Shown here one piece after another: positions 1-10,139 of a stretch of DNA of 10,220 nucleotides. The position numbers were made by a program, and so were the translations under genes. The notes under the pieces are model-generated. The model had not been told where the DNA came from. It made no database searches and saw only the letters and a program-made list of their open reading frames with translations. The DNA is taken from assembly GCA_048938385.1 (NCBI GenBank), contig JBHLMG010000039.1:1-10220 (forward strand). Direction: 5' to 3'. This DNA is from Promethearchaeota archaeon (GTDB taxonomy: Archaea; Asgardarchaeota; Hermodarchaeia; Hermodarchaeales; Hermodarchaeaceae). The stretch's first letter is position 1; the number at the start of each line of letters is the position of its first letter.

Positions 1-3000
1 AGATCGATGATATGATCAGCAGCTTGTATTATCATGGGGTCATGTTCGACAACAATAACAGTATTCCCTTCATCTCGGAGTTCTTGAAGCGCATCGCGTA
101 AAGCTTCAAGTTCAGTAGGATGCATGCCACGGGAGGGCTCATCAACGAGAATTGTTAAAGAATTTAGGCCACTACCAAGTAAGCTGGCTAGCTGGACGCG
201 TTGAGCTTCGCCTGCAGAGAGGGTTCCTGTTGGGCGGTGCAAGTGCAGGTACCCAATCCCGACCAGGCGAAGGAACCGTAATCGTTTTTGAATGACCTTC
301 AGGCTGGTTTCAACGAGAGAAGTTGTTTTTTCTGGTGCTTTTACTGTCTTGAGAAGGGCTTCTAGTTGTGTTAAGGGTGATACATTCAATTCGTAGATGT
401 TTTTGCCCTGTAGGGTTACTGCGAGAAATTCTGGACGCAATCCTGAGCCTTCACATTCGGGGCAGACAATCCTGTTGGTGTAAGTGCCATGAATATCCCA
501 ATTGAAAATCCAGCTGTCTTCGCGATAGAATCCACGCCAGGTCCACTTAGTCTTCCGTTCCTTGCCCTTTAATCGACCGGTAGATTTGCTAATGTATGTA
601 AACTGGTAAGTATTCCCATCACCCCATAAGAATACGGTACGAGCTTTTTCTGGCATCTCGTTCCAAGGTGTTTTGAATGGGTCGAAGCCATAGCGTTTTC
701 CTAGTTCCGGAATGATGGGTTGATCCTTACACAGATATGTTTTAGGCCAATATCCGGGGGAATACATGGCTCCCGCACATAGGGGTTTGTCTGGCTGAAC
801 GATTAGCTTCTCAGGTTGGGCTTCGTGTAAGAAACCTAGACCACTACACTTTGGACAGGAGCTTGTCCAGTGGTTGCCTGCAAAATGTCGAGGTAGCGCT
901 ATCGGCGCGACCGCCCTGCATTCAGGACAATTCCAGTGGTCTCCTCGTTGCATCGTAGTGCCACATTCAAGGCATTTACGAGTTCCTAATGCTGCCAGAA
1001 CATTCGCAAGGTGAAATGATAATTCTGAAATCGTCCCTACGGTGTTTCTTCGTGTGAACTGTGGTAGAGTAGACCAGCGATGGACAACCTCGTCTTTAAG
1101 GGTCAAAGTGACTCCCAGACCTGAAATCGAGTCAACAGGAGCCTCAGCGCTTTCTCGCGTTCCTTGCCGTTCATACATAGATAGCGTTTCTAAATAGCGC
1201 CGGCGTGCTTCAGTTTCTAAAACATCGCGCACCAGACTTGATTTTCCAGAGCCTGAGACGCCTGTTACTACCGTTAAGGTGTTCTTGGGAATCGTCACAT
1301 TGATGCCTTTCAGGTTATTTGCTCGGGCGTTACGAATATCAATAAATGGACGCGTCTTGGACTCTGTAGGGACCGCTAATGTATGGGGTTGAATGGTGCG
1401 TTCATCCTGCAAAGCACGACAGGTCGCGGAGCCTGTCATATTGGTTAATCCGTCTGGTGGACCTGTGTATAGGAGTTTTCCGCCCTTTGGACCTGCTCCT
1501 GGTCCCAAATCGATGATCCAATCAGCTGTGCGAATGAAATCTAAGTTGTGTTCGACAACGATGATCGTAGCACCATGTTGAACAAGCCGATTTAACACCA
1601 CCAGAAGACCCTCTAGGTCGTGAGGATGTAATCCCGTTGAGGGTTCGTCCAGTACGACAAGCTGGTTGGTGAGTTTATTGCGACCCAGAAATTTTGTTAA
1701 CTTGACACGCTGTGCTTCGCCCCCTGAAAGGGTAGGAGAGGGCTGTCCAAGTTCGAGGTATCCTAACCCCACATCATTCAAAGCCTGTAAAATTCTTTTT
1801 GCGGCATTTCGCTGGGCTGGTGATAGCCAGGGAGTTTTGGAGATCAGTGGTTCAATTTCCTTAATTGGTGTTGCATAAAAATCAGCGATAGTTAAGGATT
1901 GGTTTCCAAATTCGACAGGGGCAGTCAGGACTTTCGGGTTGAATCGTTTTCCTTCACAATCATTACAGGGAATCCAAATGGAGGGCAAAAACCGCATCTT
2001 GACTTCGGTTGCCCCAATACCTTTACAGCTAGGGCAAGCACCTTCTGGACGGTTAAAAGAGAAGTGGGATTTAGATAATCTCGTTGCAGCAGCGTACATG
2101 TCTCTTATGATGTCTGATAACTTAGTGTAAGTTGCAGGATTAGACCGAGGGTTTCGACCGATTGGACTTTGATCGACTATCATTGGTTGGAGGGGGTTCC
2201 CTTTAATTCCCGCACAACCCACCGCTTTCTTGTTCTTCAAACTCGGAACGATTACATGTTCTACGAGAGTACTTTTCCCTGAACCTGATACACCGGTAAT
2301 AACGGTTAATCGACCCAAAGGAATTGAAACATCTATCCCTTGCAGGTTATGCTGAGAGGCGTTTTGAATAGTGATAAACCGTTCGGGAGGAGGACGCTTT
2401 TTGAGTGTTGGTACGCCTTCCTGGAGGCTGAAATAGCGCCCTGTTATGGTGTTGGCTTGCCATAACTCTGAGGGCGTTCCTTTGAAGATCACTTCACCCC
2501 CTTCTCGACCTGCGCCAGGACCTAGATCGATGGCATGATCTGCGGCCGCCGCCGCAACACGATCATGTTCTACGAAAATCACAGGCCCATTGAGCTCTCG
2601 GAATGCTGGAAGAAAGCGGGCTATATCAGCGGGGTGTTGTCCAATGGTTGGTTCGTCCAGTACATGGAGCATATCCTCAAGGCGACTTGATAAGGAAATC
2701 GCGAGTCGTACTCGTTGTGATTCGCCTCGAGATAGAGTGGTGGCGGGTCGGTTCAAAGTAAGGTAACCAAGCCCTACCCGTTCTAGAGCGTTTAGTCGAT
2801 GTTGGATTTCAGAGCATAATCGTTTTGCCGTTGTTGGGAGTGTCACTTCTGAAAACAGGTGCTGCGCCTCTTCCACTGATAACGAAAGAAGTTCGGGTAG
2901 ACGCATTCCCTCCCAACGAACGGACGCCGCTTGGGGATGCATTCCAGTTTGATTACAGCGTTCACAGCCTCTCCCTTTACAATAGGGGCAGTTCTGGTTG

Positions 3001-3770
3001 AAATGAGTAGCCCGTAACTCTCGCAATCCAACTCCACAGGCTACGCAAGAAAGGGCCGTGGTAAAGACAGCGTTCACCTTATCCCCCTTTACACGAACCC
3101 TACCTGCCCCTAGCGCTGTGGTTGCCTGGACGAATCCACGGATCTGTTTTATCGACTTAGATTTGTCCAGAATGCCTATTTCTACTTCAATGGCATGACC
3201 TGCGGTTGGGTCAAGAACCTGACCATTCCACACTCTCCCATCCACTAGTATCCGCTGTTTTCCAAATTCACTTACTAAGGCACTAAGGAGCGTGCTGTGA
3301 CTTCCCTGGACATTTTGCATCAAAGGCGCATAGATGCGAAAGGACTCCTCTTTTGACCACAAGGCTAGCCGCTCAATGATTTCATCTTCGGTGAGCACGC
3401 TAACGGGTTCGTTACAGGCAAGACAACATCGAGTGCCATAATTCGTGAACAACAAGCGCAAAAAGGGGTGCAATCCCGATGCCGATGCCAGCGTAGATAA
3501 TGGATTACGGTTCAAGAGGTTTTGACCAACGGCAATAGTAGGTCCAAGTCCTATGATCTCCTCGACATTCGCTGGCGCAAGCCGTTGACCACCTCGCCCA
3601 TACAAGAATACATCTAGAAATCGCCGCCGAGCCTCATGGTACAATGTGTCAAAAACCAGTGAAGTTTTACCAGACCCTGAGACTCCCGTCACAACAGTAA
3701 GTCCATCACTAAACTGCACATCGATATTTTTCAGGTTATGCTCGTGCGCACCACGAATGCGAATGTCCAT
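1..3770 (-). CDS. uvrA: Double-length (tandem-duplicated) UvrA-family ABC ATPase, 3' end beyond the window edge (>1256 aa)
   Basis: Manual translation from ATG at 3770 (MDIRIRGAHEHNLKNIDV...) stays in one frame to the edge (...VEHDPMIIQAADHIID). Three Walker A motifs: GVSGSGKT 3686-3663, GVSGSGKS 2294-2271, GVSGSGKS 1262-1239. Three signature/Walker B sets: LSRGE..LDEPTIG, LSGGE..LDEPSTG, LSAGE..VDEPSRG. Other UvrA hallmarks: GLGYL, DLGPGAG (twice), DQSPIGRNPRSNPATY, and the FSFN..CPSC..MRFLP..CNDC zinc finger. A GGAG RBS lies 6 nt upstream. Confidence 0.95.
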   Translation of the reverse strand, partial: MDIRIRGAHEHNLKNIDVQFSDGLTVVTGVSGSGKTSLVFDTLYHEARRRFLDVFLYGRGGQRLAPANVEEIIGLGPTIAVGQNLLNRNPLSTLASASGLHPFLRLLFTNYGTRCCLACNEPVSVLTEDEIIERLALWSKEESFRIYAPLMQNVQGSHSTLLSALVSEFGKQRILVDGRVWNGQVLDPTAGHAIEVEIGILDKSKSIKQIRGFVQATTALGAGRVRVKGDKVNAVFTTALSCVACGVGLRELRATHFNQNCPYCKGRGCERCNQTGMHPQAASVRWEGMRLPELLSLSVEEAQHLFSEVTLPTTAKRLCSEIQHRLNALERVGLGYLTLNRPATTLSRGESQRVRLAISLSSRLEDMLHVLDEPTIGQHPADIARFLPAFRELNGPVIFVEHDRVAAAAADHAIDLGPGAGREGGEVIFKGTPSELWQANTITGRYFSLQEGVPTLKKRPPPERFITIQNASQHNLQGIDVSIPLGRLTVITGVSGSGKSTLVEHVIVPSLKNKKAVGCAGIKGNPLQPMIVDQSPIGRNPRSNPATYTKLSDIIRDMYAAATRLSKSHFSFNRPEGACPSCKGIGATEVKMRFLPSIWIPCNDCEGKRFNPKVLTAPVEFGNQSLTIADFYATPIKEIEPLISKTPWLSPAQRNAAKRILQALNDVGLGYLELGQPSPTLSGGEAQRVKLTKFLGRNKLTNQLVVLDEPSTGLHPHDLEGLLVVLNRLVQHGATIIVVEHNLDFIRTADWIIDLGPGAGPKGGKLLYTGPPDGLTNMTGSATCRALQDERTIQPHTLAVPTESKTRPFIDIRNARANNLKGINVTIPKNTLTVVTGVSGSGKSSLVRDVLETEARRRYLETLSMYERQGTRESAEAPVDSISGLGVTLTLKDEVVHRWSTLPQFTRRNTVGTISELSFHLANVLAALGTRKCLECGTTMQRGDHWNCPECRAVAPIALPRHFAGNHWTSSCPKCSGLGFLHEAQPEKLIVQPDKPLCAGAMYSPGYWPKTYLCKDQPIIPELGKRYGFDPFKTPWNEMPEKARTVFLWGDGNTYQFTYISKSTGRLKGKERKTKWTWRGFYREDSWIFNWDIHGTYTNRIVCPECEGSGLRPEFLAVTLQGKNIYELNVSPLTQLEALLKTVKAPEKTTSLVETSLKVIQKRLRFLRLVGIGYLHLHRPTGTLSAGEAQRVQLASLLGSGLNSLTILVDEPSRGMHPTELEALRDALQELRDEGNTVIVVEHDPMIIQAADHIID

Positions 3771-3844: not shown

Positions 3845-4010
3845 GAACGAGCACAGACCAGATTAAAAGTAATCAGTAAGATCATAAAAGCCCGGATGAT
3901 GGGGTAAGTGTTTGTTGCAAACAAAATCAGGTAAGAATTGCTTTAACGGAAATAAAAATAGAGCTGGTTACAAAGCTAGTCATCACACTCGAAACGAGGT
4001 AACCCCTTCA

Positions 4011-5324
4011 ATGTTATCACTGAGTAGCTACAACACGAAACATTGGGTGGGGCCTCTGCTGCTATTACTTGTAACTTTCATTCTTCCTGCCACAACTGCT
4101 CAAGAAATTCGTTGGTTCCACACATTTGGTGGCCCCATCTGGGATCAAGGATACGCCATCGTTGAGGTGAGCTCTGGCGGGTTCGCTATCACTGGTCATA
4201 CTGTTCCTTACTATGGAGCTAACGCTGAATTCTGGCTAGTTCGAACCGACAGTTATGGAAACCTATTATGGTCGCAAAGTTATGGAAGTACTGATGCCAC
4301 TTGGGGACGCACACTGATTGAATGCCGTACAGGTGGGTTTGCCCTGGCTGGCGCAATAGTCGAACCCGGGAATGATTACTGGGATTGTTACATTCTTCGT
4401 ACAGCACCAGATGGAACCCTGCTCTGGAATCAGACTTTCTGGGGATTAAAGCGAGATCGGGCTGAATCCATCATTGAGTGTACTACGGGGGGATATGCAG
4501 TAGTGGGTTATACTGGCTATGTCCACGAAACGGTGTTTCAAAATCGTGATGTGTGGTTCATTCGGCTTGCTGAAGATGGTTCACATCTTTGGAATCATAC
4601 CTTTGGAGGACCTAATCACGATTGGAGTTACCAAGTGATCGAAGTGGACACGGGAGGATTTGCTATTATTGGTCATACGGCCAGTTATGGTGTCGGCGAA
4701 GATGATGTGTGGCTCATCCGTACTGATGCAGATGGTAACCTCCTTTGGAATCGGACTTTTGGGGGACCTGAAGGAGATTGGGGGTGGTCTATCACGGCAT
4801 GTAGTACCGGTGGCTTTGCCATTGCTGGATATACGGAAAATTACGGTCCGGATAACACTAACCTTTGGCTTCTCCGCACTAATGCCACGGGATACGCTCT
4901 ATGGAACCAGACCTACATTAATGGTCAGGCTTACTCGCTCCTTGAAACCCATGACGGCGGTTTTGTTATGACTGGAGTTACCGATACCCACACTGGAATT
5001 GGGTATGATGCCTGTGTCCTTCGAACTAATTCAACAGGCCATCTGGTTTGGAAACAAGTCTTTGGTGGACCACAAAACGATCAAGCCTATCACCTCACCA
5101 CCTGTTCAACCGGTGGATACGCCCTCACAGGCTACACAGAAAGTTTTGGAATCGGTGGACGAAGTATGTGGCTCGTCCGTATTTCCGATGAAGGCCTACC
5201 CTATCCCACAGTAAATCCCCTTAGAGTCGTCGGATGGCTTTTAGTAGTGATTCCCCCTGTTCTGGCTCTTTTTCTAATCATTGGAGTGTTAATTTGGCGA
5301 AAAAGACGCTACAAAACATGCTAG
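4011..5324 (+). CDS. Secreted, C-terminally membrane-anchored protein with 7 beta-propeller-like repeats (437 aa from the ATG at 4011)
   Basis: The ATG at 4011 is preceded by GAGGT (3996-4000) and followed by a signal peptide (KHWVGPLLLLLVTFILPATTAQ). Seven ~50-aa repeats follow, of the form xIxE(C/V/T)xxGG(F/Y)AxxG...DxW(L/F)xRTxxxGxxxWxxT(F/Y)GG. The C-terminal TM helix VVGWLLVVIPPVLALFLIIGVLIW ends in a basic tail, RKRRYK. Confidence 0.88.
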   Translation: MLSLSSYNTKHWVGPLLLLLVTFILPATTAQEIRWFHTFGGPIWDQGYAIVEVSSGGFAITGHTVPYYGANAEFWLVRTDSYGNLLWSQSYGSTDATWGRTLIECRTGGFALAGAIVEPGNDYWDCYILRTAPDGTLLWNQTFWGLKRDRAESIIECTTGGYAVVGYTGYVHETVFQNRDVWFIRLAEDGSHLWNHTFGGPNHDWSYQVIEVDTGGFAIIGHTASYGVGEDDVWLIRTDADGNLLWNRTFGGPEGDWGWSITACSTGGFAIAGYTENYGPDNTNLWLLRTNATGYALWNQTYINGQAYSLLETHDGGFVMTGVTDTHTGIGYDACVLRTNSTGHLVWKQVFGGPQNDQAYHLTTCSTGGYALTGYTESFGIGGRSMWLVRISDEGLPYPTVNPLRVVGWLLVVIPPVLALFLIIGVLIWRKRRYKTC

Positions 5325-5425: not shown

Positions 5426-6901
5426 TTGGTTTCGATAAAATCTAAAGGGATCTTTTTAGGATTTTGCCTACTCCTCTTTCTCTTATTAAACCACTCAAAC
5501 ATCCAGTCATTTATGACTTCTCCCCTTCGCCTGGTGAATGAAACCTCTGATTTACACTATGTTGAAAGGAGTGCATGGTGTAACCGCGTACCTCCGGTAT
5601 TCCCTGTTGAAAATTATTCAATGTGGTATAATGTCCTCGATGAGTTGTATGGGGGGATGGATATCATCCAGTTGCCCGACAAGGGGTTTATGCTATTAGT
5701 CCAAAGTGGTCTCATTCGAACGGATGCAAATGGAAATTTCCTATGGTATAGAGAACATGAACACGATTTCACTGCTTCTTCCTTCGTTCGATGTGCAAAC
5801 GGGGATTACGCTATCATCGGAAGCAAGGTAGTGTACAATCTTGAAGACTCCAATGGGTCCGCGGTTGTCCTGCGAACGACAGCAGAAGGAACTCCTCTTT
5901 GGAACACCACCTTTGATTCTCCTTACATCGATTGGGGTACATCAATCGTGGAGTGTGGAAATGGTGATTTCCTCGTTACCATCACCTCTGAAAAATACTA
6001 TGAGTGGTCCCAAGGAACCAGTGGGGGTGGGCAGGGATTGGAAAGGTATGCAGTGCATTTACTGCGACTTACCAACGAAGGCACTCCACTCTGGAATTCC
6101 ACATACGGGGAGGGCTATCGACATTACTTCTCCAAGATCATTGCTTGTAATGATGGGAGTTTCGCCATCGTCGGGGGACGCAACATTACTAACCCATTTG
6201 ATATAATTCTACCAGACAATGACATAAGGGATGATATCTGGGTGCTTCGGGTGGATTCAGGCGGAACCATTCTTGGTAACTATATCTACGATATTGGGGA
6301 TTATGATCGCAGCGTTTCCATTGTCGAATCCCAAGCTGGCGGGTTTGCTATCACGGGTCACTCAAATCACGAATATTTCTTGTTGCGGGTTTCTGATGAG
6401 GGTGCCCACCTTTGGCATGAAGTGTATCCCTTATGGCAACAATATCCTTACGATTTAGTTGAATGTCAATCAGGAGGGTACGCTATAATTGGACGGTTTA
6501 GAAGTTATGGTGTGGAACTTCCTCCAAACCTAGTATCACTGAAATGCTGTAATGAATACGATATACGGCTTGTTCGCACAAATGAAACAGGAACCCTTCA
6601 ATGGGATTTCATTTTTGGTGCATATGAACCTGATTATGCTAGAGCTATAGTCGAATGCTCAGACGGTGGCTTCGTCATCACTGGCGACACCTTCATAGAT
6701 GGAACATACCCCGAAGATGGAGGAACCTGGCTGGTATATATCCCGGATGAAGTTCCACCAGAATATCTCCGAAATTGGCCTCCGAAATCGTCACCACCTC
6801 CACCAAATCTCGCTCTCATTACCTTGATAGTGATAGTAACTGCATCATCAATGATTGCTGTCAGTTTTGGTATTTACCGTTGGCGACGCGGAATGAGATA
6901 A
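5426..6901 (+). CDS. Paralogous secreted, membrane-anchored 7-repeat beta-propeller-like protein (491 aa)
   Basis: TTG start with GAGG 8 nt upstream and an N-terminal hydrophobic segment (GIFLGFCLLLFLLL). It has the same repeat type (e.g. SIVESQAGGFAITG, AIVECSDGGFVITG, LWNTTF), a Pro-rich linker PPKSSPPPP, a TM helix and an RWRR tail. Confidence 0.88.
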   Translation: MVSIKSKGIFLGFCLLLFLLLNHSNIQSFMTSPLRLVNETSDLHYVERSAWCNRVPPVFPVENYSMWYNVLDELYGGMDIIQLPDKGFMLLVQSGLIRTDANGNFLWYREHEHDFTASSFVRCANGDYAIIGSKVVYNLEDSNGSAVVLRTTAEGTPLWNTTFDSPYIDWGTSIVECGNGDFLVTITSEKYYEWSQGTSGGGQGLERYAVHLLRLTNEGTPLWNSTYGEGYRHYFSKIIACNDGSFAIVGGRNITNPFDIILPDNDIRDDIWVLRVDSGGTILGNYIYDIGDYDRSVSIVESQAGGFAITGHSNHEYFLLRVSDEGAHLWHEVYPLWQQYPYDLVECQSGGYAIIGRFRSYGVELPPNLVSLKCCNEYDIRLVRTNETGTLQWDFIFGAYEPDYARAIVECSDGGFVITGDTFIDGTYPEDGGTWLVYIPDEVPPEYLRNWPPKSSPPPPNLALITLIVIVTASSMIAVSFGIYRWRRGMR

Positions 6902-7975: not shown

Positions 7976-9004
7976 TCATGTTTTAGTTAGTGGTTGCATA
8001 TCGACATCAGAAAAATACCGAAATGCTCGGTCTTCGTGTTTTTCGAGTAGCTTCTTGCCATACATCTGAAACGCCTTCAGGCTTGTTAGACCACCAATCT
8101 TCTTTGTGAATGTCAGGTTCAGTTCCCAGCCGCTTTTCCGTAAGGCACCAGTAGGTGTTTTCCAATTCGGATTTAAGTCAACTAATTGAACTTGTATTCC
8201 ATACGGTTTTAGCGTGGGAGTGATGACTTGGTCAAGGAATGACCAAGTGGTCAATCCTGTTTCACTTCCTCGGTTGTTATGAAAGGTTTCAGCGTCAACT
8301 ACGAGAAACCCTCCGTTAGTCTCTTCGTGTGTACTAAAAGCCGCAAAAATCCAAAGGAACCTGAAAAAGTGTTTAACTCGTTTTTTCAATCGGAATTGTT
8401 GTGGTGGAAGATCAACATCCTTCACTCCTAGTGTGGATTGCTTGAGGTTGCTTAAGAGTGTATAAACTGGTTTGAAGACTTTTGATTGTTGATCAGAGAA
8501 TGTGTCAGGAAATTCGACCACTTTCATTTTCAGGGGAGGAACGGTAATGGCCTCTACAATCTCCTCAGGTTTTAGTGTCGAGCGGATGCGCTCTAATCGT
8601 TTCAAACCTTCAAAAGGCTCAATGAAGGTGTGATACTCATCATTGGTTACTGATCGACCGAGTCTTTTCTCATAGTCTTCCCGAGTTGCTCCCGCATGCG
8701 CCTTTTCAGACGCACAAGGAAATCGTGAACAATAGGCACAGTTCTTGATGTCCATCTTAGTGACACATTTCCGAATTTGACAACCTCGTCGGAAATTTGC
8801 GTGCCAATGCTTGGCATTCTTTCCGATTTTGTCTTCGGGTGTTAAACATAATAAGCAAGGCTTTTCTGTAGGTGTATACCCCATGATTGTCTTTGCCTGT
8901 TTCCGAAAATCGTTGAATTCCTCATCTGGGATTCCTTTGCGGGTGATTGGGGACCAAGGGCATGCTGCACAGTTCATTCCGCATTTTGAAATAACTTCTG
9001 GCAT
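7976..9004 (-). CDS. DUF3795-like cysteine-rich domain protein with an uncharacterised C-terminal region
   Basis: The N-terminus CGMNCAAC...CLLC...CQIRKC..KMDIKNCAYCSRFPC has 10 Cys in the spacing typical of DUF3795. The remaining ~240 aa are Cys-free and not recognised. Confidence 0.82.
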   Translation of the reverse strand: MPEVISKCGMNCAACPWSPITRKGIPDEEFNDFRKQAKTIMGYTPTEKPCLLCLTPEDKIGKNAKHWHANFRRGCQIRKCVTKMDIKNCAYCSRFPCASEKAHAGATREDYEKRLGRSVTNDEYHTFIEPFEGLKRLERIRSTLKPEEIVEAITVPPLKMKVVEFPDTFSDQQSKVFKPVYTLLSNLKQSTLGVKDVDLPPQQFRLKKRVKHFFRFLWIFAAFSTHEETNGGFLVVDAETFHNNRGSETGLTTWSFLDQVITPTLKPYGIQVQLVDLNPNWKTPTGALRKSGWELNLTFTKKIGGLTSLKAFQMYGKKLLEKHEDRAFRYFSDVDMQPLTKT

Positions 9005-9011
9005 GAGAAAC

Positions 9012-9139
9012 CACTCGGCTGGAAAGTATCGCTGGGGTTCCTCTGTCGGTTTCTCCTATATAATCAGGGAGTCTTGTAGCGAAGTGAATTCTCTAGAGCA
9101 CAAGTAGGCCGAGATGACCAACCCCTCCGCCACCGAGTG
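9012..9139. repeat. Long imperfect nested inverted repeat (possible structured RNA element)
   Basis: Nested complementary pairs: CACTCGG 9012-9018/CCGAGTG 9133-9139, TGG 9020-9022/CCA 9130-9132, GGGGTT 9034-9039/AACCCC 9120-9125, TCGG 9046-9049/CCGA 9109-9112, CTTGT 9073-9077/ACAAG 9100-9104. Confidence 0.5.
9057..9063 (-). promoter_or_regulatory. Candidate TATA box for the DUF3795-like gene pair
   Basis: Minus strand TTATATA, ending 52 nt upstream of the ATG at 9004, in the only sizeable gap of the cluster. Confidence 0.5.
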
Positions 9140-9638
9140 TGCAACCCATCATGTCCTTCTGATAGATTCGAAGCGTAAACCCAGCATGGGGTTCTTCTTG
9201 CTCACCCACCTTTTGATAACCTAGTTTCTCGTAAAAGTGATGATTGCGAGTATGCCACTCTGGTGTATCAAGGATCCACCGCTTCGCTGGAAAGGTTCGA
9301 TGAATGTATTCCATTGTAAAGGTCCCGATACCGAGACCTTGGTACTCGGGATCTAGAAATATTGTCCCTAGTACATTCGAACCCTTCTCTGGGTAGTTCT
9401 TGAATATGATGAAAGCACCGATTAATGTATCACCTAAGATTATCTTATAACACTCACCAGGACCCATAAATTGCTGAAAAAATCGTCCATCATTGTAACC
9501 ATCTGGACCACCCTCAGGCTCGCCACGAAAACGTTGTGTATCATCATCAAAGCTTCGCGTCATTACAGCCGTGAGGGCTGGAATATCTGCCCTAGTTGCT
9601 ATTACATATTGAAGTTGATCTAAATCGGCTTTTCTCAT
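9093..9638 (-). CDS. GNAT family N-acetyltransferase (start probably the ATG at 9638 rather than the GTG at 9650)
   Basis: It has the acetyl-CoA-binding motif A (IFLDPEYQGLGIGT) and motif B (NHHFYEKLGY). AGGTGA lies 8 nt upstream of the ATG at 9638. Confidence 0.92.
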   Translation of the reverse strand: MRKADLDQLQYVIATRADIPALTAVMTRSFDDDTQRFRGEPEGGPDGYNDGRFFQQFMGPGECYKIILGDTLIGAFIIFKNYPEKGSNVLGTIFLDPEYQGLGIGTFTMEYIHRTFPAKRWILDTPEWHTRNHHFYEKLGYQKVGEQEEPHAGFTLRIYQKDMMGCTLGGGGVGHLGLLVL

Positions 9639-9650
9639 TCGTAGAATCAC

Positions 9651-10139
9651 CTACTTGATTATTGGATAGTAGAGATCTAACACCAGGTCTGCACCTGCGT
9701 CTGGATCGCGAGGCTTTTCAAGACCTGGATGTCCACGGTACTTGTACCCGTGTGCTTTTGCCCATTTTTCCAAACGATGCCAAGATTCCAAGATCCCATG
9801 TTTTTTGAAGAAGTCTGACTCCAATTCCTCCTTTAACACACAGGTGGTGACCGCGTACTCGCCGCCCTCCACTTCCTTCACTTCAACCAGATCGTCTGAC
9901 TCGATATCATCCCCTACGCGAATCCAGAACATGTAACCGTATTCACGCTTCCCTGGTTCCGGTGGAGGATCATTGAATCCAAAAACTGGGTGTTTTTCCA
10001 AATCACCCAGCAGTCCTTTCGCTGCAGCCCAAGCACGTATCTTAGCCCAGGCTTCTAATTCTGGTGTAACGCTAATTACGCGTAAACTTGCTACCCGCAT
10101 CGGAGCAAGCTTAACGATACGCACTTCCTTGTTTTTCAT
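9651..10139 (-). CDS. Stand-alone GyrI-like (AraC effector-binding-type) small-molecule-binding protein
   Basis: Motifs VRIVKLAPMRVAS...PE..AW...WA...FGFNDPPP....YGY.FWI...GGEYAVT...W..L..W...LE...LDLYYPI are typical of the GyrI-like fold. No HTH is present. An AAGGAG RBS lies upstream. Confidence 0.9.
   Translation of the reverse strand: MKNKEVRIVKLAPMRVASLRVISVTPELEAWAKIRAWAAAKGLLGDLEKHPVFGFNDPPPEPGKREYGYMFWIRVGDDIESDDLVEVKEVEGGEYAVTTCVLKEELESDFFKKHGILESWHRLEKWAKAHGYKYRGHPGLEKPRDPDAGADLVLDLYYPIIK

Follow-up and report, generated by a model that had tools for sequence, protein, structure and literature searches.

The window, that is, the whole stretch of 10,220 nucleotides that was analysed, is an entire 10.2-kb contig and carries on its minus strand an open reading frame whose own 3' end is open, being cut by the end of the contig. 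The frame encodes the larger part of a UvrA protein that has two UvrA units in one chain (a double UvrA). Its features in the window are listed below, with residues numbered from the ATG at position 3770.

3..3770, minus strand: double UvrA gene, residues 1-1256 of 1642; ATG at 3770-3768, protein start MDIRIRG
1356..3770, minus strand: half 1 (residues 1-805), with NBD-I and NBD-II and a UvrB-binding-type domain, no insertion domain
3036..3425, minus strand: Zn module 1 of half 1, C116/C119...C242/C245, around a 122-aa UvrB-binding-like domain (Pfam UvrA_inter)
2955..2990, minus strand: collapsed Zn module 2 of half 1, CPYC-x4-CxRC; insertion domain missing
1401..2390, minus strand: NBD-II of half 1, with Walker A 493-500, Zn3 C579...C605, LSGGE 681, Walker B 706-711, H-loop 739-742
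1326..1400, minus strand: linker between the UvrA units, about 25 aa (residues 791-815), poorly conserved (35% family identity)
3..1325, minus strand: half 2, in-window part (residues 816-1256), with NBD-I and the insertion domain; NBD-II continues on contig C2
918..974, minus strand: collapsed Zn module 1 of half 2, CLEC-x11-CPEC; UvrB-binding domain missing
453..857, minus strand: Zn module 2 of half 2, C972/C975...C1103/C1106, around a 127-aa insertion (DNA-binding) domain (Pfam UvrA_DNA-bind)

The gene ends on contig C2 (G000:C2:193232-194467), where the final 386 residues are encoded and the stop codon lies; this contig overlaps positions 1-77 of the window exactly. Joining C2 to the window contig recovered the full reading frame, a complete tandem UvrA of 1642 aa; this is the commonest length in the double-UvrA family, and the N-terminus agrees with those of the homologues. 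The join was confirmed by a near-identical public scaffold, JBHLKQ010000003.1, which is unbroken across the junction between C2 and the window. An assembly artefact was ruled out, as this scaffold bridges the join of C2 and C21, while C21 bridges the gap of the scaffold itself. A split gene was ruled out as well: the two gene calls of 1192 aa and 475 aa in the public scaffold stem from a gap of 100 N. No SSU rRNA was found in the MAG, which is 90% complete; its PCNA assigned it to the Archaea, and the genome is of Asgard type. A pattern-based scan of the genome contigs with P0003 returned an unrelated UvrA, 33% identical, as its sole match.

The original prediction had described two UvrA units joined in one chain, each having lost the accessory domain that the other keeps, and profiles, alignments and motifs all bear this description out. 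The eight CxxC pairs on which it was built are present in half 1 as C116/C119 (3425-3414), C242/C245 (3047-3036) and C261-C272 (CPYC-KGRG-CERC, 2990-2955), and in half 2 as C933/C936 (974-963), C948/C951 (929-918), C972/C975 (857-846) and C1103/C1106 (464-453); the inserts between them, in order, measure 122 aa, 4 aa, 11 aa and 127 aa, as had been predicted. The identification of the two long inserts as the UvrB-binding and the insertion domain also held, with Pfam, TIGR00630 and the structure of Thermotoga maritima UvrA (3pih) in agreement. In the protein (P0001) Pfam places UvrA_inter at residues 136-237 and UvrA_DNA-bind at 995-1075. Half 1 matches positions 2-284 and 401-922 of the TIGR00630 profile, so that 285-400 are missing, and half 2 matches 2-126, 250-560 and 536-924, so that 127-249 are missing. 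Against 3pih, half 1 aligns to residues 3-280 and 383-914 and half 2 to 4-127 and 245-914, and the insertion domain of half 2 is colinear with that of 3pih. Judged by these alignments, the homology of both halves to UvrA is well beyond chance.

The double UvrA has six CxxC...CxxC zinc modules, three per unit, two of which are reduced to a bare finger; in the commonest family variants listed, the collapsed module of half 1 reads CPYCxGxGCxRC. Both Zn3 modules (signature domain II) are intact, and Walker A, signature, Walker B and H-loop are present at all four NBDs and conserved across 59 family members. The reading of the protein as a covalent asymmetric dimer stands; one chain holds four sets of ATPase motifs and both Zn3 modules, and the two halves presumably pack like a UvrA dimer. 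Identity within the family is 68-82% in the NBDs and 65% in the insertion domain, which has long invariant runs. The survey of homologues found the same reciprocal architecture conserved across hundreds of genomes.

UvrA is the textbook example of a symmetric homodimer, and the double UvrA departs from each of its described relatives. With class I UvrA (TIGR00630/NF001503; 3pih, 2r6f, 9gxk) each half of the double UvrA shares the two ABC ATPase domains with all their motifs and the three Zn modules, Zn3 in signature domain II among them, and its identity to the canonical UvrA of the host genome is about 40%. However, the double UvrA carries two units per chain, of which half 1 is without the insertion domain and half 2 without the UvrB-binding domain, and its remaining accessory domains are highly diverged. 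The NF001503 profile scored 969 bits, under its cut-off of 1147, while on TIGR00630 it reaches 955 bits, above the cut-off of 730, when both units are added together, each separate piece being below that cut-off. Class II UvrA proteins (UvrA2 2vf7, DrrC, Ecm16 7sh1) operate outside canonical NER and, like half 2, have an insertion domain and no UvrB-binding domain. They are single homodimerising units without a docking domain, whereas the double UvrA has one in half 1 and does not fall into class II. Moreover, half 2 scores 523 bits against 3pih, 419 bits against 2vf7 and 381 bits against 7sh1. Two units in one reading frame, as here, are also seen in the tandem UvrAs of Planctomycetes, where a tandem-fused double-length UvrA has been noted (PMC8567305), in the Chlamydia type (NF001885) and in two genomes of the phylum, G042 and G021. 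In the latter two both units are complete (profile positions 2-923, each above 1000 bits), in contrast to the incomplete units here; the tandem frame is the only UvrA-family match in either genome and has no toroid partner. The double UvrA reaches 637 bits on NF001885, whose cut-off is 3054. A search of the full-text literature for 'class III UvrA' or 'class IV UvrA', for a tandem UvrA with reciprocal losses and for a UvrA-toroid pair found none, and a review (PMC7835731) does not discuss UvrA paralogues.

Directly downstream of the double UvrA lies a gene of 349 aa (G000:C2:192189-193235) which overlaps its stop codon by 4 bp. Fold searches identified the product as an alpha/alpha-toroid, (alpha/alpha)6, with the fold of terpene cyclases and thioester domains: squalene cyclase 1gsz was matched with VIA Z 15.4 (rmsd 4.6 Å, 251 aligned residues), the C5 TED 9y6c with VIA Z 15.1 (rmsd 5.1 Å, 248 aligned residues), and Foldseek returned drimenyl diphosphate synthase with E 1.6e-5. 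Family profiles respond less: the score on Pfam SQHop_cyclase_C (PF13243) is 25.8, just under the cut-off of 26.1, that on TIGR01507 is 16.6 against 431, and the repeat matches in Pfam and NCBIfam are weak. The toroid shares its fold with class II terpene cyclases and TED domains, but a search for the cyclase DxDD and the thioester motif found neither, and it differs from both groups in being a single 349-aa domain encoded beside a UvrA-type ATPase of the DNA-binding class.

The toroid gene is an obligatory neighbour of the double UvrA, which is another difference from class I, and we know of no toroid partner reported for a class II UvrA. Among 400 genomes of the phylum the double UvrA was found in 99 and the toroid in 101, with both genes in 93, UvrA alone in 6 and the toroid alone in 8; those of the unpaired genes that were checked are at contig ends or are fragments. 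The toroid gene follows directly in 20 of 22 carriers from another archaeal class, and in the remaining two the genes are at contig ends. It also lies directly 3' of the double UvrA in records from Chloroflexota, Bathyarchaeota and Acidobacteria, where the other neighbours vary. The spread of the module across the domains of life is patchy.

When the complex of the excised UvrB-binding-like domain of half 1 with the toroid was predicted, the median score was 0.81, compared with 0.17 for the best control. Among solved complexes 58 of 80 attained this mark, among mismatched pairs 2 of 110; the counts are approximate because our own alignments were used. The three docking runs share at least 68% of their contacts, the pLDDT of the toroid is at least 82, and the score is unlikely to reflect a memorised structure, since no solved complex resembles this pair. 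On the double UvrA the predicted interface comprises residues 154-161, overlapping GSHxTLL (156-162), the most conserved motif of the docking domain; the contacts of lowest error are G45, S46, H47, T49 and L50 (slice numbering), all invariant or nearly so, and on the toroid they fall in a conserved N-terminal segment and the tail PFQPY. The toroid is therefore predicted, by modelling, to sit on the UvrB-binding-like domain of half 1. As for conservation, this docking domain is the least conserved folded region of the double UvrA (44% identity) and the toroid is about 80% conserved in the family, a disparity one would not expect of a fixed interface, though the motif in contact shows no variation.

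The original prediction also held that the retained domain of half 1 could load a single UvrB, and it advised a check for the repair genes. Canonical uvrB, uvrA and uvrC are indeed all present in the host genome, as a uvrB-uvrA-uvrC cluster, which makes the double UvrA a paralogue. One could argue that the protein is an asymmetric single-chain sensor of NER that works with the UvrB and UvrC of the host, where half 1 loads exactly one UvrB, the insertion domain of half 2 clamps DNA and the toroid is accessory or unrelated. The homology of the retained domain to the UvrB-binding domain agrees with this, as does the presence of UvrB in 39 of 40 good carrier genomes of the phylum and in all 12 carriers searched in the genus, besides the host itself. 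The complete tandem UvrAs of about 1920 aa, which are apparently the sole UvrA in two genomes of the phylum, likewise indicate that a covalent dimer is compatible with NER. However, the host already has a canonical UvrA, and in the other archaeal class UvrB was found in 0 of the 22 carriers, compared with 48 of 301 genomes overall (the completeness of the carriers was unreported). One of these carriers, G062 (CP070765, 1.5 Mb), has the double UvrA and lacks UvrB, canonical UvrA and UvrC; its protein P0057 scores 36.9 bits on UvrA_inter, equal to the highest among the family members tested. Across the family the domain is strongly diverged, with 20-37 bits on UvrA_inter where the canonical UvrA of the host reaches 129 bits, and its most conserved motif is the predicted seat of the toroid. 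Thus, unlike class I UvrA, the double UvrA occurs without UvrB in many genomes, and, judged by co-occurrence only, it is not tied to a partnership with UvrB and UvrC. The loading of one UvrB is not supported, and we regard the single-chain NER sensor as quite unlikely; a module independent of UvrB is favoured, so that a role outside NER, which had been offered as a fallback, is the better-supported branch of the original prediction.

We consider it reasonably probable that the reading frame is the first gene of a conserved two-gene module of UvrA and toroid that works without UvrB and UvrC. The two fused units would together mimic a UvrA dimer, which would bind and probe DNA through ATP-driven conformational cycling as UvrA does and may sense a DNA lesion or adduct. 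With the sole insertion (DNA-clamp) domain in half 2 and the sole peripheral docking domain in half 1, the latter would seat one toroid instead of UvrB at an end of the DNA-binding groove, and the toroid could be a client or effector that is handed to the flagged site. If the toroid is held in place of UvrB, the module would function without UvrB and UvrC. As to what the toroid does there, we can only guess that it captures a bulky adduct or a DNA-bound compound. The docking, however, rests on a prediction with an excised domain, and the nearly universal presence of UvrB among the carriers of the phylum means that UvrB may be used here. We put forward only tentatively, as possible but short of probable, that the pair is an unrecognised route of DNA surveillance or repair needing neither UvrB nor UvrC, in which the old UvrB-docking domain sets the toroid, a new lesion-handling factor, beside a lesion or DNA-bound compound, and that this route is widespread in Asgard archaea, Bathyarchaeota-type archaea and Chloroflexota.

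A more specific form of the UvrA-toroid module would be protection against DNA-binding compounds in the manner of the class II proteins DrrC and Ecm16: the ATPase would find and dislodge an intercalator or bulky adduct without incision, and the toroid, whose cavity resembles that of terpene cyclases, would take up the molecule once it is set free or modify it. There is a precedent in Ecm16, which needs ATPase activity and is independent of UvrA, UvrB, UvrC and UvrD (bioRxiv 10.1101/2022.02.02.478902). The layout of half 2 is that of class II, its alignment to UvrA2 of Deinococcus radiodurans (2vf7) is continuous, and the fold of the toroid is known from enzymes and binding proteins that act on hydrophobic polycyclic molecules; the occurrence of the module without UvrB, its patchy distribution and its varying neighbours fit as well. 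By contrast, half 2 is nearer to class I than to UvrA2 or Ecm16 in the scores given above, no biosynthetic cluster or exporter was seen near the module in the four loci read, and the toroid has no recognised catalytic motifs and no known ligand. This version is therefore unlikely in our judgement.

A patchy, horizontally spread cassette of two genes could also be a defence module against phages or plasmids, with the ABC-type ATPase as sensor of foreign DNA and the toroid as effector. The NBDs match mad3 and mad8 of the MADS system in PADLOC, and hence UvrA-like ATPases do exist in defence systems. Nevertheless, these matches are confined to the generic UvrA NBDs, the toroid matches nothing in PADLOC, and scans with Pfam, NCBIfam and PADLOC detected no nuclease or effector-type domain. 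The neighbours at the loci read are not defence genes and no other mad genes are nearby, so that the locus does not qualify as a MADS system, and tblastn of the toroid against the PLSDB plasmids gave no match. We hold a defence function to be very improbable.

To our knowledge, UvrB and Mfd are the only known clients of UvrA. If the docking prediction is true, the UvrB-binding domain has found a second use in the recruitment of a protein whose fold had no earlier link with DNA metabolism, which would point to an unstudied pathway of repair or detoxification. In the double UvrA asymmetry is hard-wired, with a single clamp domain, a single docking domain and four ATPase sites that can be told apart; it would therefore allow a role to be assigned to each site and each side of the UvrA dimer, a task that the symmetry of the canonical protein makes difficult. 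About a quarter of the sampled genomes in the archaeal phylum nearest to eukaryotes hold the module, and so do abundant sediment archaea without UvrB.

The window is an entire contig of 10,220 bp. Its largest ORF lies on the minus strand, starts at the first possible TTG (3797) and stays open down to position 3, with no stop codon inside the window. Window positions 1-77 recur exactly as the final 77 bases of contig C2 of the same genome, and the frame runs on into C2 for 386 further residues before it reaches a stop. With the ATG at 3770 (MDIRIRG) as its start, the joined double UvrA has 1642 residues, the commonest length among more than 100 homologues, and its N-terminus agrees with theirs. 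The scaffold JBHLKQ010000003.1 (GCA_048886565.1, Candidatus Hodarchaeota archaeon) carries identical DNA that is uninterrupted across the junction of C2 and the window's contig (C21), and the 100-N gap of this scaffold, at window ~193-270, is bridged by C21. Because the independent scaffold spans the junction and C21 spans the scaffold's gap, the double UvrA gene is whole and real. In the public scaffold this gap splits the gene call into two proteins of 1192 aa and 475 aa. The breaks of the two assemblies, which are of essentially one organism, fall at different points of the gene (window 1-77 and about 193-270), and each has a 77-bp overlap. The source genome is archaeal, as its PCNA scores above the cut-off, and its completeness is 90%. 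The search of this genome for uvrB, uvrC and a canonical uvrA found all three, clustered as uvrB-uvrA-uvrC on contig C22 (uvrB at 40785-42743), which makes the double UvrA a paralogue.

The original prediction had read the gene as a single-chain double UvrA whose two halves have complementary deletions, and this reading proved right when the full ORF was recovered, each half was aligned and profiles were run. Every cysteine pair that it listed was found in its place, and the residues separating the pairs in half 1 (residues 1-805) and half 2 (residue 816 onward) are as follows.

Spacing of the cysteine pairs in zinc modules Zn1 and Zn2 of the double UvrA
Half 1, Zn1: 122 residues
Half 1, Zn2: 4 residues
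Half 2, Zn1: 11 residues
Half 2, Zn2: 127 residues

Pfam, TIGR00630 and the comparison with T. maritima UvrA (3pih) agree on the reciprocal loss of accessory domains. Pfam places the UvrB-binding-like, docking-type domain (UvrA_inter) in half 1 only and the insertion domain (UvrA_DNA-bind) in half 2 only; the TIGR00630 positions matched are 2-284 and 401-922 by half 1, and 2-126 and 250-924 by half 2. Against 3pih, half 1 skips residues 281-382 (insertion domain) and half 2 skips residues 128-244 (UvrB-binding domain), and two clean reciprocal deletions are visible when the canonical UvrA of this genome is included in a three-way alignment. Among 59 family members, Walker A, signature, Walker B (DEP) and H-loop are kept in all four nucleotide-binding domains (NBDs) and the Zn3 module in both halves. 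The signature of NBD-I is invariably LSRGE in half 1 versus LSAGE in half 2 (window 2721-2735 and 207-221), a fixed asymmetry, and that of NBD-II is LSGGE in both halves. NBD-I of half 2 lacks the usual Q-loop glutamine and carries a 7-residue insertion there (window 1100-1130, residues about 881-890). The halves are joined by a variable linker of ~25 residues. One chain thus holds two UvrA units whose ATPase and Zn3 elements are intact, together with a single insertion domain and a single docking domain.

Judged by their profile scores, these two accessory domains have diverged much further than their counterparts in the canonical copy.

Pfam scores of the accessory domains
UvrA_inter: 20-37 bits in the double UvrA, 129 bits in the genome's own canonical UvrA
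UvrA_DNA-bind: about 30 bits in the double UvrA, 108 bits in the genome's own canonical UvrA

Among family members the insertion domain is well conserved (65% identity, with long invariant stretches); of the folded parts, the docking-type domain is conserved least (44%), yet it contains invariant motifs such as GSHxTLL.

Directly downstream, on C2, lies a 349-aa ORF (P0122) whose start overlaps the stop of the double UvrA by 4 bp. Its product, of pI 9.2, has weak matches to squalene-cyclase repeats, and neither a DxDD nor a thioester motif was found in its sequence. The AlphaFold model (pLDDT 72, pTM 0.76) is an (alpha/alpha)6 toroid; among solved folds it most resembles squalene cyclase, drimenyl diphosphate synthase, the type II cyclase MstE and the thioester domains of complement proteins. 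Conservation of the toroid is extreme: archaeal and bacterial copies have a mean column identity of about 80%, and the loop GYRRLxHSKFGCRTNTT and the basic C-terminal tail PFQPYPKKPxRF are invariant. In one chromosome each of Chloroflexota and Bathyarchaeota and in an Acidobacteria contig, the toroid gene likewise comes after the double UvrA, with no other neighbour shared. Among 400 genomes of the window's phylum the double UvrA occurs in 99 and the toroid in 101, with both genes in 93, the double UvrA alone in 6 and the toroid alone in 8; the unpaired cases that were checked are contig ends or fragmentary matches. Wherever both genes share a contig in this phylum, their coordinates place the toroid directly downstream on the same strand.

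The original prediction supposed that such a protein could load at most one UvrB, and offered a role outside nucleotide excision repair (NER) as the alternative. Within the window's phylum co-occurrence cannot show whether UvrB is needed: of 40 good carrier genomes 39 have UvrB, as do all 12 genomes searched in the genus and the source genome. The family is also found in the archaeal class of CP070765, a record labelled Bathyarchaeota. There the double UvrA occurs in 22 of 301 genomes, with the toroid directly downstream in 20 of these 22, the remaining two genes being cut by contig ends. UvrB occurs in 48 of the 301 and was found in none of the 22 carriers, against ~3.5 expected if the two were independent and kinship is ignored. 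In CP070765 itself, a single 1.5-Mb record, no canonical UvrA, UvrB or UvrC was found, and its double UvrA still has the docking-type domain (36.9 bits to UvrA_inter). The double UvrA is thus paired with a toroid gene, often in a genome without UvrB, and the module is maintained across many species without NER partners, which counts against the loading of UvrB as an obligatory function. The one-UvrB model is disfavoured and the non-NER role is favoured over it.

A candidate client for the docking-type domain is the toroid itself. Complex prediction with the domain of half 1 (139 residues) and the toroid, using 26 UvrA domains paired with same-contig toroids, gave a median score of 0.81 versus 0.17 for the best of three controls; three runs share at least 68% of contacts, and the partner pLDDT is at least 82. 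Of 80 solved complexes 58 attained this mark, as did 2 of 110 mismatched pairs; because our own alignments were used, these figures are approximate only. The score is unlikely to echo a known structure, because a comparable solved complex does not exist. The most confident predicted contacts are residues 154-161 (VQGSHSTL) of the double UvrA and, on the toroid, the conserved N-terminal segment (residues 5-43) and the invariant C-terminal tail (residues 333-341); on both proteins these contact residues are the best-conserved positions. The prediction supports, rather than demonstrates, docking of the toroid on half 1, and such docking fits the translational coupling, the single docking domain per chain and the retention of this domain in UvrB-less genomes. 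In canonical complexes a client on the docking domain of one protomer also contacts the other's signature-II domain (PMC12796330); with dimer-like packing of the two halves, the toroid would then adjoin half 2.

We propose that the two halves, tethered by the linker, would form an intramolecular UvrA-like dimer, which would scan and clamp DNA in the manner of UvrA and, at one end of the DNA segment it binds, would present one toroid. One could guess from the toroid fold, and from UvrB-independent class II UvrAs such as Ecm16 (bioRxiv 10.1101/2022.02.02.478902), that the toroid might capture or process a bulky adduct or a DNA-bound compound.

Double-length UvrAs are already known (PMC8567305). 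Two genomes of the window's phylum encode tandem UvrAs of about 1920 aa (G042:C1:418710-424412 and G021:C24:96513-102194) in which both units are complete, in contrast to the incomplete ones of the double UvrA; the tandem ORF is apparently the sole UvrA-family match in each genome, and no toroid partner was found in either. Class II UvrAs are without the UvrB-binding domain (bioRxiv 10.1101/2022.02.02.478902) and have the same layout as half 2, whose sequence is nevertheless closer to class I. Our literature search found nothing on reciprocal domain loss in a tandem UvrA and nothing on a UvrA-toroid pair, and a double UvrA with both features is undescribed in the literature searched. Two PADLOC profiles from the MADS defence system, mad3 (E 5e-122) and mad8, strongly match NBD-II of the double UvrA (residues 1326-1628); those MADS components are therefore UvrA-like ATPases.

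Other genes of the window
3912-5324, plus strand: 470-aa ORF, first of two tandem paralogues (31% identical to each other)
5426-6901, plus strand: 491-aa ORF, second paralogue
7976-9004, minus strand: DUF3795 protein, first of three small genes in a row (7976-10139)
9093-9650, minus strand: GNAT acetyltransferase, second of the three
9651-10139, minus strand: GyrI-like/Cass2 small-molecule-binding protein, third of the three

The two paralogues are transcribed divergently from the double UvrA and are built from internal repeats (...GGFAI.G...LLRT...G..LWN...). They matched no Pfam family, giving just weak delta-60/SBBP beta-propeller hints, and were not seen next to the module at the loci inspected in three further genomes. 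Some GyrI-like proteins guard against DNA-alkylating natural products. Downstream of the toroid gene on C2 (L016:4672-11203), a 266-aa ORF without a family match precedes a complete operon for an Opp/Dpp-type peptide ABC importer, with SBP_bac_5, two permeases and two ATPases.
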